Below, piece after piece: positions 3,562-8,110 of a stretch of 51,091 bases of DNA; the stretch's first letter is position 1; every line of letters begins with the position of its first letter. Source of the stretch: Candidatus Moranbacteria bacterium RIFCSPHIGHO2_01_FULL_55_24 (GTDB taxonomy: Bacteria; Patescibacteriota; Minisyncoccia; Moranbacterales; UBA1568); NCBI GenBank assembly GCA_001786575.1, contig MFRW01000010.1, forward strand, positions 1 to 51,091, written 5' to 3'. Under the pieces are notes generated by a model. That model did no database searches, was not told where the DNA came from, and worked only from the letters and a program-made list of their open reading frames with translations. The translations under genes and the position numbers were made by a program.

Positions 3562-4323
3562 ATGTCAGAAAGCCTTACCAAGCAAGTGAAGGCGGGTGCG
3601 TTCCTGCTTCTCGCTTTCGCGGCGCTCGCGTATACCTATCAGTACGGCCGTTCCGTGAACCAGGCCTTCCCGAACCGCACGTTCACCGTCGACGGTGAAG
3701 CGGATGTCGAAACGCCGCATGACGTGGCTTCCTTCACCGCGACGGTGGTGACTGAAGGCGGCAAGGAAGTGGCTACGCTCCAGGCCCAGAACACCGAAAA
3801 GATGAATGCCTTAAACGCTTTCCTGAAGGAGCAGGGGATCAGCGGCAAAGATCTCCAAACCAAGAACTACTCGCTCACCCCTCGTTACCAATACTCGAAC
3901 TGTCTCCCTGGGACGACCTGTCCGCCTCCGGCTATCAGCGGGTACACCATCACGCAGTCTCTGGAAGTGCGGGTGCGGAACATGGACATCCTCGGAGCGC
4001 TCCTTGCTGGCGTAGTCGAGAAGGGAGCGAATACCGTTTCCGGCGTATCTTTCGTGACCGATGACGATGAGGATGCCAGAAACGATGCCCGCGAAGAGGC
4101 ATTCAAAGAGGCACGCAAGAAAGCTCAATCCATCGCCAAGGCCGGCGGGTTCCGCCTCGGCAAGCTCGTGTCGTTCTATGAGGACAACGGCTTGATACCA
4201 GCCGATATGAACTATGGCATGGGCGGTTCCGAGCTCTCCGTCAAAAGCGCAGCTCCGGTCATCGAGCCGGGGACAGAGAAAGGGAAACTCAAGGTCGTGC
4301 TGACCTACGAGATCAAGAATTGA
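3562..4323 (+). CDS. SIMPL/DUF541 domain protein (periplasmic/immunogenic protein family)
   Basis: N-terminal TM/signal segment. Family-like blocks: SFTATVVTEG, GYTITQSLEVRV, AREEAFKEARKKAQSIA, KLKVVLTYEI. Confidence 0.75.
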   Translation: MSESLTKQVKAGAFLLLAFAALAYTYQYGRSVNQAFPNRTFTVDGEADVETPHDVASFTATVVTEGGKEVATLQAQNTEKMNALNAFLKEQGISGKDLQTKNYSLTPRYQYSNCLPGTTCPPPAISGYTITQSLEVRVRNMDILGALLAGVVEKGANTVSGVSFVTDDDEDARNDAREEAFKEARKKAQSIAKAGGFRLGKLVSFYEDNGLIPADMNYGMGGSELSVKSAAPVIEPGTEKGKLKVVLTYEIKN

Positions 4324-5849: not shown

Positions 5850-5922
5850 TGGGTGTAGTAGGGCTCGAACCTACGACCGTTAGCTTAAGAGGCTACTGCT
5901 CTACCAACTGAGCTATACACCC
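5850..5922 (-). tRNA. tRNA-Lys (anticodon CTT)
   Basis: Acceptor GGGTGTA/TACACCC, D arm GCTC/GAGC, anticodon loop CTCTTAA, T arm GTAGG-TTCGAGC-CCTAC. Confidence 0.9.
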
Positions 5923-5934
5923 GAATACTTTTTA

Positions 5935-6007
5935 GCCGCATCCTTGTCTACGACCGTTTGCTTGAGAGTCCGCCAGCCGGCGGATCTACCAACCGAAGCT
6001 TACACCC
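5935..6007 (-). pseudogene. degenerate tRNA-Lys copy carrying the 16-nt palindrome
   Basis: Minus strand reads GGGTGTAAGCTTCGGTTGGTAGA + TCCGCCGGCTGGCGGA + CTCTCAAGCAAACGGTCGTAGACAAGG. It is colinear with tRNA-Lys. The palindrome replaces the anticodon-stem 5' strand. The T arm and acceptor 3' strand are lost. Confidence 0.7.
5969..5984. repeat. 16-nt palindrome TCCGCCAGCCGGCGGA
   Basis: Copy 2 of 3. Confidence 0.9.
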
Positions 6008-6046
6008 AAATAAAAAACGCTTCTAAAACGGATAAAGCGTACCGCG

Positions 6047-6075
6047 ATAGTACCAAGAAAATGCCAGCAAGTCAA
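6047..6075 (-). promoter_or_regulatory. sigma70-type promoter TTGACT-N17-TACTAT for the tRNA operon
   Basis: Read on the minus strand upstream of pseudo-Lys, tRNA-Lys, tRNA-Arg and tRNA-His. It is followed by the hairpin ACGCTT..AAGCGT plus a T run at about 6012-6040. Confidence 0.6.
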
Positions 6076-6084
6076 GATTTCGGG

Positions 6085-6738
6085 AAAATTAAAGGGCCCC
6101 GTGGTCAGTTGATACTGATACATACGGGGCCCTGTCTGCGTGAATGGTTCGATCGATCCGAGGTGATGAGCGAAATATCGCTCCCGAGGCCTGGATATTG
6201 ATCTGGAACCCTCTGAACGAGGAGGTCGCATCCTGTGCGACAGGCGAGCGATAATTCTCGCTATGCTTCCAGCGGGTGGGGATAGATATCCCTTGCCCTA
6301 GCTATCGGAACGGAGGATGCGTGGCGACGCGGTCATGCATGAGGATCGCTCCTTCTGCATTCAGTTAGCCCGGGCACCATTGCGTCGGGCTGGTGGCTCG
6401 GCACGGTCCGCTTCCTGCTTGAGGTGCGGGCCGTGCCAGCGCCGACGGGCGAATATCAGGCGGTCGAAATAACGGCAGCGCCGGCGTCGGCAGGGTCGGT
6501 GTCGGTGCACATCTCCATGGGCGGACTGGTCTGGGTAGACATCGTAGCCTCCTTTGCTGTGAGCCATTCAAAGAAAAAACGGTTTCCTTCGCCGGGAGCA
6601 GTATGGAGCGTGTCTCTTGCGAGAAGACGCTCCCTTTATGGGTATAAAGGACTGCTGCGGTAGCGGGGACCGGAATGGCGAGAGGAAGACGATAGAGTCA
6701 CCTGCCTTTCGCCATCCCGGTTCTTTATTTTTAAACAA
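6085..6738 (-). ncRNA. unclassified ~650-nt promoter-to-terminator transcript (structured non-coding region, possibly with a small ORF)
   Basis: Perfect TTGACA-N17-TATAAT promoter at 6745-6773. A terminator GGGCCCCGT..ACGGGGCCC plus TTTAATTTT lies at 6085-6132. Between them are many perfect hairpins and no convincing long ORF. Confidence 0.45.
6456..6542 (-). CDS. candidate 28-aa small ORF (MSTQTSPPMEMCTDTDPADAGAAVISTA)
   Basis: AAAGGAGG lies 5 nt upstream of the ATG. C/G-rich third codon positions resemble neighbouring genes. Too short to be judged from sequence alone. Confidence 0.25.
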   Translation of the reverse strand: MSTQTSPPMEMCTDTDPADAGAAVISTA

Positions 6739-6744
6739 CCAATT

Positions 6745-6773
6745 ATTATACACCCAAAAGCTTACTCTGTCAA
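6745..6773 (-). promoter_or_regulatory. consensus sigma70 promoter TTGACA-N17-TATAAT
   Basis: Both hexamers are perfect with a 17-nt spacer. A second TTGACA lies at 6782-6787. Confidence 0.75.
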
Positions 6774-6826
6774 GACTCATTTGTCAATATATCTATATTT
6801 TGCTTTAAATAAAGCAAAAGTCTTGA

Positions 6827-8110
6827 TCAAGGGTTCAGTCGCTTGTATTCAGCCCACTGCTTGTTGGACCAGTTTTTCGGCTTATCCGAGAGCTTCTGAT
6901 CTTCGCCTGGATGCGGGAAGAGCGCCGGAGACTTGTAGTTGCTCCAGAAGCTGTCCTTGATGAATTCTTTCCCGTCTCGGCTCACCATCTGGGTGAAGAC
7001 GGTCTTCATGCTGCCGTCCGGATTGCTCTGGAGGATATGCGGCCCATCCACAGAAACCGTCCGGCCGTCCTTGGTGCCGAAGAAGCGGAAATAGAGTTCG
7101 GTACCCTGGATGCTCGCCTGCATAAAGACAGAGTGGCCGGTGTTGTTCATGAATTTGAAATCAGGCCTCGGGACATAGACGGTCGCATCCATACCATAGG
7201 GCTTGTAGTACTGGACCGGGTAGGAGTGATTGCGCCGCTCGGTGATCTTCATGCCGCTCCAGATCGCCGCCCGGAAGACGGTGGTCGATACCTGGCAGAT
7301 GCCGCCGCCGAATTCCGGCTCGGTCTTGTTGTTCCTTATCACGAGTTCCGGCAGGTAGCCGTGCTCGCCATCGACTTCGCCTAAGTGTTCCACGAACGAG
7401 AATTCCTCTCCTGGAGCGATCATGACGCCCTGGAATTGCTGGATTGACCGGTTGATGTTGTAGATGCGGTTCTTGGGCGAGCCGGCGAAGTTCGTCTTGC
7501 CTTCACCGATCATTTCGCGGAGCCCGAGGCGTTCCTTGTCGCGCGCGGTAATCGCCGGGGCGACAGTCTCGACGGGAAGCCGGAGCGAGAATGCCTTCCC
7601 GGACTGCTCGCCCATAAGCGCCGTTTTCAGGATGGCCAGACTCTCTTCTTTGTTGACGGTCGCGCCTGGCGCTTCCGGGGTGGCGACGATGATCTTCCCT
7701 TCGCTGTCCCCAGCAAAGACCGCGTCTTGCGGATCCACGTCCGCCTTGGCCGCGAAGTCATCGAGGAACTTCTGGATCTTCTCCTCCGAAACGGAAGACA
7801 GGAGGACCGTCCGTACCTGGGCGCGCTTCTCCCGCGGCATGGCGAAATCGCAGAAGCGATAGCCGACCGGACAGAAGGCCGGGTTTTCGACCTCCGAGCG
7901 GTAGTCATGAGCGAATTGGCTCTTGGTCGATATGTGGAGCCAGGAAGAGACGGTCTCGCTCGGGACGGTTTCCGAATACGCGCCGGCGGAGACGGTAATG
8001 CTCGGGACAGACGAAGCGCTCACGGTTCCCGGCAAGATCAAAATCCCCAGGATGAAGAAGGGCAGGAGGTTTCTGGTATGGAGAGCTGAAGAGGGAAGGA
8101 AGAGTCTCAT
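6827..8110 (-). CDS. VanW family protein
   Basis: N-terminal signal/TM segment. VanW core GGGICQVSTTVFRAAIWSGMKITERRNHSYPVQYY. Confidence 0.8.
   Translation of the reverse strand: MRLFLPSSALHTRNLLPFFILGILILPGTVSASSVPSITVSAGAYSETVPSETVSSWLHISTKSQFAHDYRSEVENPAFCPVGYRFCDFAMPREKRAQVRTVLLSSVSEEKIQKFLDDFAAKADVDPQDAVFAGDSEGKIIVATPEAPGATVNKEESLAILKTALMGEQSGKAFSLRLPVETVAPAITARDKERLGLREMIGEGKTNFAGSPKNRIYNINRSIQQFQGVMIAPGEEFSFVEHLGEVDGEHGYLPELVIRNNKTEPEFGGGICQVSTTVFRAAIWSGMKITERRNHSYPVQYYKPYGMDATVYVPRPDFKFMNNTGHSVFMQASIQGTELYFRFFGTKDGRTVSVDGPHILQSNPDGSMKTVFTQMVSRDGKEFIKDSFWSNYKSPALFPHPGEDQKLSDKPKNWSNKQWAEYKRLNP

Follow-up and report, generated by a model that had tools for sequence, protein, structure and literature searches.

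In a 51,091-nt stretch of DNA from Candidatus Moranbacteria bacterium RIFCSPHIGHO2_01_FULL_55_24 (contig MFRW01000010.1, positions 1–51,091; hereafter the window), part of a genome of 789 kb that is 99% complete, a transcription unit with its own predicted promoter and terminator occupies positions 6085–6773 of the minus strand, between a VanW-like gene (6827–8110, with VanW and PG_binding_4 domains) and a tRNA Lys-Arg-His operon. Here, we argue that this unit specifies, with a probability of roughly 0.6, an mRNA that is strongly transcribed and heavily folded and that carries two tiny open reading frames (ORFs), ORF-A of 28 and ORF-B of 12 residues, and that this is the smallest form of an accessory slot with hypervariable content. 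The argument draws on units in related genomes, to which this one is homologous by position and layout and which carry ordinary small-protein genes, on the pattern of codon change in ORF-B, and on a long 5′ hairpin whose pairing is kept through compensatory changes. An initial annotation had located the same landmarks, from promoter to terminator, and had read them as a large structured RNA or riboswitch-like leader with a micro-ORF; the landmarks stand, and it is the reading that changes. In order of transcription, the features of the unit and its downstream boundary are as follows.

6745–6773, minus strand: sigma-70-type promoter, with TTGACA at 6773–6768, a 17-nt spacer and TATAAT at 6750–6745 (12 of 12 consensus matches)
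6669–6721, minus strand: conserved long 5′ hairpin of 22 bp (computed folds, alignment A3 and model R1, both described below)
6597–6656, minus strand: branched module in which helix P1 (AGCAGT/ACTGCT) encloses two hairpins (minimum-energy and centroid folds)
6543–6581, minus strand: predicted hairpin that would partly mask the Shine–Dalgarno (SD) sequence of ORF-A, with UUUUUCUUUG paired to CAAAGGAGG of that SD (minimum-energy and centroid folds)
6456–6542, minus strand: ORF-A, 28 residues, MSTQTSPPMEMCTDTDPADAGAAVISTA, with the SD AAAGGAGG at 6548–6555, 5 nt before the ATG
6341–6455, minus strand: GC-rich, genome-specific hairpins that separate ORF-A from ORF-B (fold z = −3.05)
6302–6355, minus strand: ORF-B with its SD; 12 residues, MHDRVATHPPFR, at 6302–6340, with GAAGGAG at 6349–6355, 8 nt upstream
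6133–6301, minus strand: structured 3′ stretch of several short hairpins without an ORF, specific to this genome (fold z = −2.65)
6085–6132, minus strand: intrinsic terminator, with the stem GGGCCCCGT/ACGGGGCCC at 6132–6094 followed by TTTAATTTT at 6093–6085
6047–6075, minus strand: promoter of the tRNA Lys-Arg-His operon, TTGACT-17-TACTAT, a boundary feature outside the unit

The VanW–tRNA slot and its homologous units

The VanW-like gene and tRNA-Lys are separated by 904 nt, within which the unit and the tRNA operon share the same orientation. The unit's promoter is the sole perfect one in a scan of 1.6 kb, which returned three promoter-like sites against 0.9 expected, and it is predicted to start transcription near 6738–6740, giving a 5′ untranslated region (UTR) of about 200 nt from the consensus promoter to ORF-A. 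The same promoter lies 30–60 nt past the VanW stop codon in relatives. At the other end, the terminator stem is a 10-bp perfect inverted repeat that is present in the computed fold; it was missed by a simple terminator scan because its loop is 21 nt long. Relatives have a GGGGCCCC-type stem at the equivalent position, immediately past which the tRNA operon promoter is kept as ATTGAC..TACAAT.

A blastn search with the unit against its own genome and 40 relatives matched the promoter alone, as TTGACA..TTTTGGGTGTATAAT preceding unrelated genes in the relatives; among the loci in which this promoter sequence precedes unrelated small genes are L002, L004 and L005. The −10 region itself, TTTTGGGTGTATAAT (6745–6763), is identical at 14 of 17 nt to GGGTGTATAGC (5914–5930), a segment made up of the tRNA-Lys 5′ end and the bases immediately before it.

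Homologous units were located via synteny and not by sequence search, because members of the genus are distant from one another, their VanW proteins being 50–60% identical. The order from VanW-like gene to tRNA Lys-Arg-His is kept across the genus (50 species) and beyond, with a gap that can be as short as about 40 nt or exceed 1000 nt. Long gaps share a layout of promoter, hairpin, variable stretch, AAGGAG with a start codon and a first ORF, often followed by a second small ORF, then a terminator and then the tRNA promoter. Among at least 15 such units only the 5′ hairpin can be aligned; the stretch from hairpin to SD, and all sequence past the first ORF, is wholly different between subgroups of relatives.

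The first ORF is hypervariable. Its lengths form a series of 195, 96, 66, 53, 48, 42, 36, 33, 28 and 27 residues, with 27–96 residues in the subgroup to which the window belongs. In genomes G001, G009, G061, G044 and G058 it encodes proteins of 124–170 residues, and in another genus (loci L106 and L114) proteins of 107–108 residues; this 107–170-residue family has in common a signal-peptide-like N-terminus and a C-terminal ‘HHRE’ motif. The units of G023 and G041 hold a different protein, of 195 residues, which also has a signal peptide. The ‘HHRE’ family (alignments A4/A5) has 29 members among 5.8 billion proteins, all of them hypothetical and all from Moranbacteria, its modules are mosaic, and the AlphaFold model of a 170-residue member is of low confidence (predicted local distance difference test score, pLDDT, 51.7; predicted template modelling score, pTM, 0.23). 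No Pfam or NCBIfam model matched any of the peptides or the relatives' longer ORFs, and in the window's own genome the best hmmsearch hit of the ‘HHRE’ family to a six-frame translation had E = 3. Likewise, tblastn of the relatives' proteins against the unit gave noise only, and a metagenome scan with the VanW protein brought up no close relative. The long forms with signal peptides point, from their sequences, to an exported and fast-diversifying product.

How quickly the slot can change is seen between close relatives. Between G002 and G016 the stretch from promoter through hairpin is 100% identical, the 3′ module 98–100% and the neighbouring genes 90%, and the 260–340 nt in the middle cannot be aligned; in G009 and G061, the N-terminal 60 codons of the long ORF are 98% identical and beyond them lies divergence with indels. 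The unalignable middle of G002 and G016 (L022 vs L023; L089 vs L090), which comprises the distal 5′ UTR and the first ORF, has a cassette-like look, and G016 carries an insert of about 95 nt between CCTGCTGCA repeats. In about half of the genus, the VanW–tRNA gap is only 40–170 nt and no hairpin match is found anywhere in the genome; the unit is therefore accessory.

Given its position, the unit could also be thought a cis-acting leader or attenuator of the tRNA operon, with read-through set by translation of the micro-ORFs. The two adjoin in the same orientation and ORF-B contains His and Arg codons; however, the two are kept apart by a strong terminator and by the tRNA operon's own conserved promoter, the distance from ORF-B to the terminator ranges from 29 to 170 nt, and the Arg codons of ORF-B (CGC and CGA) are not read by the operon's tRNA-Arg(UCU). 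Moreover, the tRNA cluster is inverted in six relatives (G015, G001, G009, G044, G061 and G023), and there the unit stays beside the VanW-like gene. We therefore regard a leader function as very improbable; the place of the unit beside tRNA genes is, on the comparative evidence, inherited synteny and not a functional link. Between the tRNA operon promoter and tRNA-Lys there is also a degenerate tRNA-Lys-like copy (5940–6005, minus strand), which matches the 5′ portion of the real gene at 79% identity across 28 nt, and a similar pseudo-copy occurs at the equivalent place in relative G004 (L014, about 3575–3640).

ORF-B, ORF-A and the Pro-Pro micro-ORFs

ORF-B, which shows a clear coding signature, has orthologues in four relatives, namely MQHRVNTHPPDY in G015, MRLIATHPPDR in G007, MRMIATHPPFD in G064 and MRQSTHPPFY in G065. 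The Thr-His-Pro-Pro core is invariant across the five species, and the stop codon falls two codons past Pro-Pro in every one of them. The codons beneath this core differ, with ACG/ACG/ACA/ACC/ACC for Thr, CAT/CAC/CAT/CAC/CAC for His, and CCT/CCG/CCA/CCA/CCT then CCG/CCC/CCT/CCC/CCT for the two Pro residues, such that the third position of each of the four codons is variable and the eight remaining positions are all invariant. Random placement of four variable sites among 12 would give this third-position-only pattern with a chance of 1 in 495, and we infer from it that ORF-B is translated and under purifying selection. ORF-B is the sole micro-ORF of its kind in the genome. Its surroundings have no consensus structure across the relatives except a small GGA/TCC hairpin at the SD, and its spacing is not conserved: in relatives about 30 nt separate it from the first ORF and 29–40 nt from the terminator, the latter distance being about 170 nt here. 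The idea that the His-Pro-Pro codons (CCUCC) act as an anti-SD was rejected, as third-position changes in the relatives abolish the pairing.

Pro-Pro micro-ORFs are not confined to ORF-B. In a second subgroup of units a micro-ORF ends in Arg-Pro-Pro-stop, and in G001, G061 and G044 a micro-ORF reading MSYHLSRPP-stop lies 3′ of the long ORF. Across these VanW–tRNA gaps, Pro-Pro occurs within the last four residues of 15 of 312 micro-ORFs in the sense orientation, MSYHLSRPP-stop included, and of none of 374 in antisense, counts that are not phylogenetically independent. The stop codon of MSYHLSRPP-stop (GYAPTGPP-stop in G009) lies in the loop of a hairpin in the 3′ UTR of the long ORF (L019, L021, L051 and L053), and between G001, G009, G061 and G044 this hairpin changes in sequence and keeps its pairing (GTCCGC..GCGGAC vs GGTCC..GGACC).

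The first ORFs of relatives also change in the manner of coding sequence. Those of G015 and G065 are homologous, with frame, length and start all kept; in the 48-residue first ORF all indels between the two are multiples of three in length, and a 5-codon upstream ORF (MVKSP), whose stop overlaps the next start as GTGA, shows synonymous changes only. In a similar way, the segment THAPPATG differs between G002 and G021 by six synonymous changes.

ORF-A is most likely the smallest form of this hypervariable first ORF. It has a weak similarity to the 66-residue first ORF of G059 (z = 2.95, reached by 4 of 500 shuffles), the common parts being an N-terminal T-x-P-P and a C-terminal AGA..A; ORF-A and ORF-B, for their part, both have T-[S/H]-P-P five to seven residues past the initiating Met. 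With a model of codon usage derived from 468 long ORFs in the genome, neighbouring genes score well above zero (VanW +141, Hsp20 +78 and a 139-residue protein +40 bits), and the listed ORFs of 68–81 residues in the unit score from −0.5 to −40.8 bits, in keeping with the earlier judgement that the stretch holds no credible long ORF.

A further ORF of 23 codons with a GTG start (MPSHQPDAMVPGLTECRRSDPHA, 6402–6473, minus strand) has a weak SD and neither a homologue nor evidence of use; its TGA overlaps codons 2–3 of ORF-B, an arrangement that would permit translational coupling.

The 5′ hairpin and the question of an RNA product

The 12-bp helix with which the transcript had been said to open, CCGGGATGGCGA/TCGCCATTCCGG, is indeed present and forms the base of the longer 22-bp hairpin at 6669–6721, which starts about 17 nt past the predicted transcription start. 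In relatives the hairpin is 19–31 bp long and starts 15–35 nt past the predicted start. Alignment A3 brings together the hairpins of 12 units from at least two genera. Its hairpin cells are paired in 90.7% of cases, vs 72.7% for shuffled alignments and 35–46% for slid partners, a percentage that is inflated by the choice of its members as predicted hairpins. That choice does not inflate compensatory changes between subgroups, and these are found at 13 of 18 pairs (for example, G-C in seven units and A-U in five, or C-G in six and G-C in six), a count equalled by none of 500 shuffles, with a covariation score of 0.61 vs 0.28. A covariance model built for the hairpin, R1, matches 6669–6721 at 55.8 bits and finds exactly one match per genome in 15 of 50 genomes of the genus, invariably at the VanW–tRNA slot; G061, G023, G059 and G041 are among these and lie outside its training set. 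The hairpin is probably a stability or processing element.

Since the plus strand folds even more strongly than the minus (z = −8.6 and −6.6, respectively, vs dinucleotide shuffles of the whole unit), it might be asked whether the plus strand is the functional one, with the 5′ hairpin and TTCTTTATTTTT serving as its terminator, and in this genome a T-run does follow the hairpin in that orientation. The T-run is not conserved in relatives, though, no plus-strand promoter was found by the scan, R1 scores 10–30 bits higher on the minus strand in every genome, and it is in the minus orientation that promoter, SD sites, ORF-B and terminator are all kept in relatives. We give a plus-strand function almost no credence.

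The more serious question is whether the RNA itself, including the branched module and the genome-specific hairpins, is the product, with the micro-ORFs secondary to a functional structured non-coding or dual-function RNA. Every sub-part of the unit beats shuffles in folding, the 5′ UTR at z = −4.1; G002 and G016 share 97–100% identity in their non-coding flanks vs 90% in neighbouring protein genes; and the 5′ UTR is conserved better than the ORF in several pairs of relatives. Against this, the 5′ hairpin aside, no helix of the unit can be aligned in any relative, the sequence between hairpin and SD is wholly different between subgroups, coding signatures are present, and in relatives the unit carries ordinary protein genes of 48–195 residues. 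The three-way-junction-like module illustrates the point. It forms as had been described, its P1 arms (AGCAGT 6656–6651 and ACTGCT 6602–6597) enclosing both hairpins in minimum-energy and centroid folds, and it has no alignable counterpart in relatives, although their predicted folds give a similar shape from different sequence.

Searches of known RNA families, including ROOL, GOLLD, OLE, raiA and the riboswitch classes, gave no family match. At gathering score, the only Rfam 15 matches in the whole window are to rRNA and tRNAs, and at E values up to 10 the region 5900–6900 yields only chance matches of microRNA type on the 5′ hairpin (E 0.18–1); models for T-box, 6S, RNase P, group I and II introns and HEARO did not match the unit. 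The likeness to GOLLD, ROOL, OLE and raiA RNAs lies in a length of about 650 nt, a promoter and terminator of its own, dense predicted hairpins and tRNA neighbours; the unit differs from them in having no Rfam match, no conserved multi-helix architecture, ORFs that appear to be translated and protein genes in its homologous units. The proposal of a large structured RNA is not supported, and we consider an RNA product improbable. The riboswitch-like reading fares no better, as a conserved aptamer between promoter and ORF is absent and the stretch from hairpin to SD differs between subgroups of one genus. The idea of a structured leader with a micro-ORF survives in part: homologous units do exist and their 5′ hairpin covaries, and a second micro-ORF, ORF-B, has a coding signature, but the remaining helices cannot be aligned.

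Other candidates were tried and set aside. A transfer-messenger RNA (tmRNA) lies elsewhere in the genome (RF00023 at C6:20566–20963, 107.8 bits, adjoining smpB) and none is found in the unit; ARAGORN misses the genome's tmRNA, which had raised the idea of a divergent one here until the Rfam match was seen. A type I toxin–antitoxin pair was rejected, with ORF-A and ORF-B polar or acidic and lacking a hydrophobic stretch, and with no antisense promoter found. A miniature inverted-repeat transposable element or insertion sequence remnant was also rejected, as the unit is single-copy in the genome and has no inverted terminal repeats around it.

Weighing the reading, its mechanism and known systems

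Several observations weigh against a two-protein mRNA, beside the stronger folding of the plus strand and the selected membership of A3. ORF-A has no close orthologue among the relatives, and its codon-usage score of +4.6 bits, which is compatible with coding, is not decisive, since 22% of real 28-codon pieces do no better and 12% of wrong-frame pieces do at least as well. The evidence for ORF-B amounts to about three independent lineages. The unit is dispensable, being missing at the slot in about half of the genus, and a 28-residue remnant of proteins that reach 195 residues elsewhere could be a relic. Finally, about 285 nt (6341–6455 and 6133–6301) stay unexplained although their folding beats shuffles: the excess folding is real, but comparison with relatives is impossible, as neither stretch has a copy in its own genome or a homologue in relatives and no repeats occur in 6133–6301. 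From sequence comparison, we treat both as insertions specific to this genome.

These points bear most directly on the possibility that the unit is a decaying remnant of a former gene for a secreted protein of 100–200 residues, with expression signals and ORF stumps left and no present function. The descending series of first-ORF lengths, the empty slots of other species, the lack of any 107–170-residue family member in this genome and the more than 40% of the unit that is non-coding sequence unique to it would all fit such decay. Yet the promoter matches at 12 of 12 positions, the hairpin, both SD sites and the terminator are intact, and the apparent purifying selection on ORF-B spans species whose VanW proteins are 55–60% identical, a divergence that neutral remnants would not be expected to outlast in a streamlined genome of 0.79 Mb. 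We consider decay unlikely, while giving it more weight than an RNA product, and prefer the reduced small-protein unit.

As an mRNA for two small proteins, the unit would work as follows. It would be highly expressed from its consensus promoter, and the 5′ hairpin would protect or process the 5′ end in the way of 5′ stem-loop or STAB-SD stabilizers. The SD of ORF-A may be partly masked by the upstream pyrimidine run UUUUUCUUUG, a pairing between pyrimidine-rich leader and SD that is also predicted in G021, G001 and G002. ORF-A, a shortened relative of the 33–96-residue first ORFs of sister species, would then be translated, and on ORF-B the Pro-Pro motif might cause a ribosome pause. A more far-reaching and doubtful version holds that the slot is a site of cassette exchange that diversifies a highly expressed exported product, with the Pro-Pro micro-ORFs as a shared 3′ roadblock or stability switch, formed by a stalled ribosome, of an undescribed kind. 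The promoter and hairpin on one side and the conserved 3′ module on the other would here flank a segment swapped wholesale by recombination between near-identical genomes.

The known systems closest to the 5′ part are mRNA stabilizers such as those of cry3A in Bacillus thuringiensis, hbs and aprE in Bacillus subtilis and ompA in Escherichia coli, with which the unit shares a long 5′ UTR behind a strong promoter, as well as a large hairpin near the 5′ end. RNase J, the 5′-to-3′ exonuclease blocked by such elements, is encoded in the genome (TIGR00649 match of 469 bits, cut-off 400, at C3:63954–65612). In contrast to 5′ stem-loop stabilizers, the hairpin lies about 17 nt from the predicted start and not at the very end, and it is locus-specific and conserved rather than generic. 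In the STAB-SD design, an SD without a start codon in a long 5′ UTR stabilizes the mRNA (PMC4113751). Units of a sister genus resemble it: about 130 nt before the real start codon they carry AAAGGAGGTGATCC, which is perfectly complementary to the 3′ end of 16S rRNA, whereas the unit of this genome has no such start-less SD. The 5′ UTRs that bear AAAGGAGGTGATCC downstream of the VanW-like gene (L102, L106, L112, L114 and L116) offer it no usable start, and L106 and L114 read the conserved nucleotides past it in different frames; these nucleotides are therefore best taken as acting at the RNA level and not as coding.

For ORF-B, the nearest parallels are proline motifs that pause or arrest ribosomes, among them EF-P-dependent Pro-Pro, RAGP of SecM, RAPP of ApdA and ApdP, and stalling at Pro-Pro-stop during termination. 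ORF-B is like them in being very short, in having Thr-His-Pro-Pro as its only conserved residues and in its fixed distance to the stop codon. Known arrest peptides lie upstream of the gene they regulate, whereas ORF-B stands at the 3′ end of the unit, before the terminator, with no downstream gene to control; we know of no obvious precedent for a Pro-Pro micro-ORF ahead of a terminator. Hypervariable loci with conserved flanks are familiar from prochlorosin-type precursors of ribosomally synthesized and post-translationally modified peptides (RiPPs) and from class II bacteriocin genes. As in those, expression signals and the N-terminal part are conserved and the product differs totally between close relatives (G002/G016 and G009/G061), and the peptides are small, with a high content of Gly, Asn, Ala and Thr. 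The unit differs from them in having no modifying enzyme, transporter or immunity gene beside it, no recognizable leader motif and no Pfam or NCBIfam match.

One candidate for a large ornate RNA is hereby struck off, and a gap of about 900 nt in a streamlined genome is accounted for through synteny, where sequence search had little to offer. What takes its place is a Moranbacteria-specific, hypervariable slot for small proteins, predicted to be strongly expressed and marked by a conserved 5′ hairpin, together with a 12-codon ORF that is invisible to gene callers and, by its codon changes, clearly under selection. Since a host-attached lifestyle is presumed for bacteria of the Candidate Phyla Radiation (CPR), exported peptides that diversify quickly and are highly expressed would be plausible interaction factors in them.

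Two minor observations concern the genes around the slot. The VanW orthologue of G022 (C1:150609–151697, in a genome that is 56% complete) contains five in-frame TGA codons, which mark either a pseudogene or stop-codon recoding. In the window itself, the 3′ part of the 16S rRNA gene (1–491) carries an insertion of 35 nt at the site of a 4-nt loop in the Rfam model, and GAUGAAUCACCUCCUUU is the sequence at its 3′ end.

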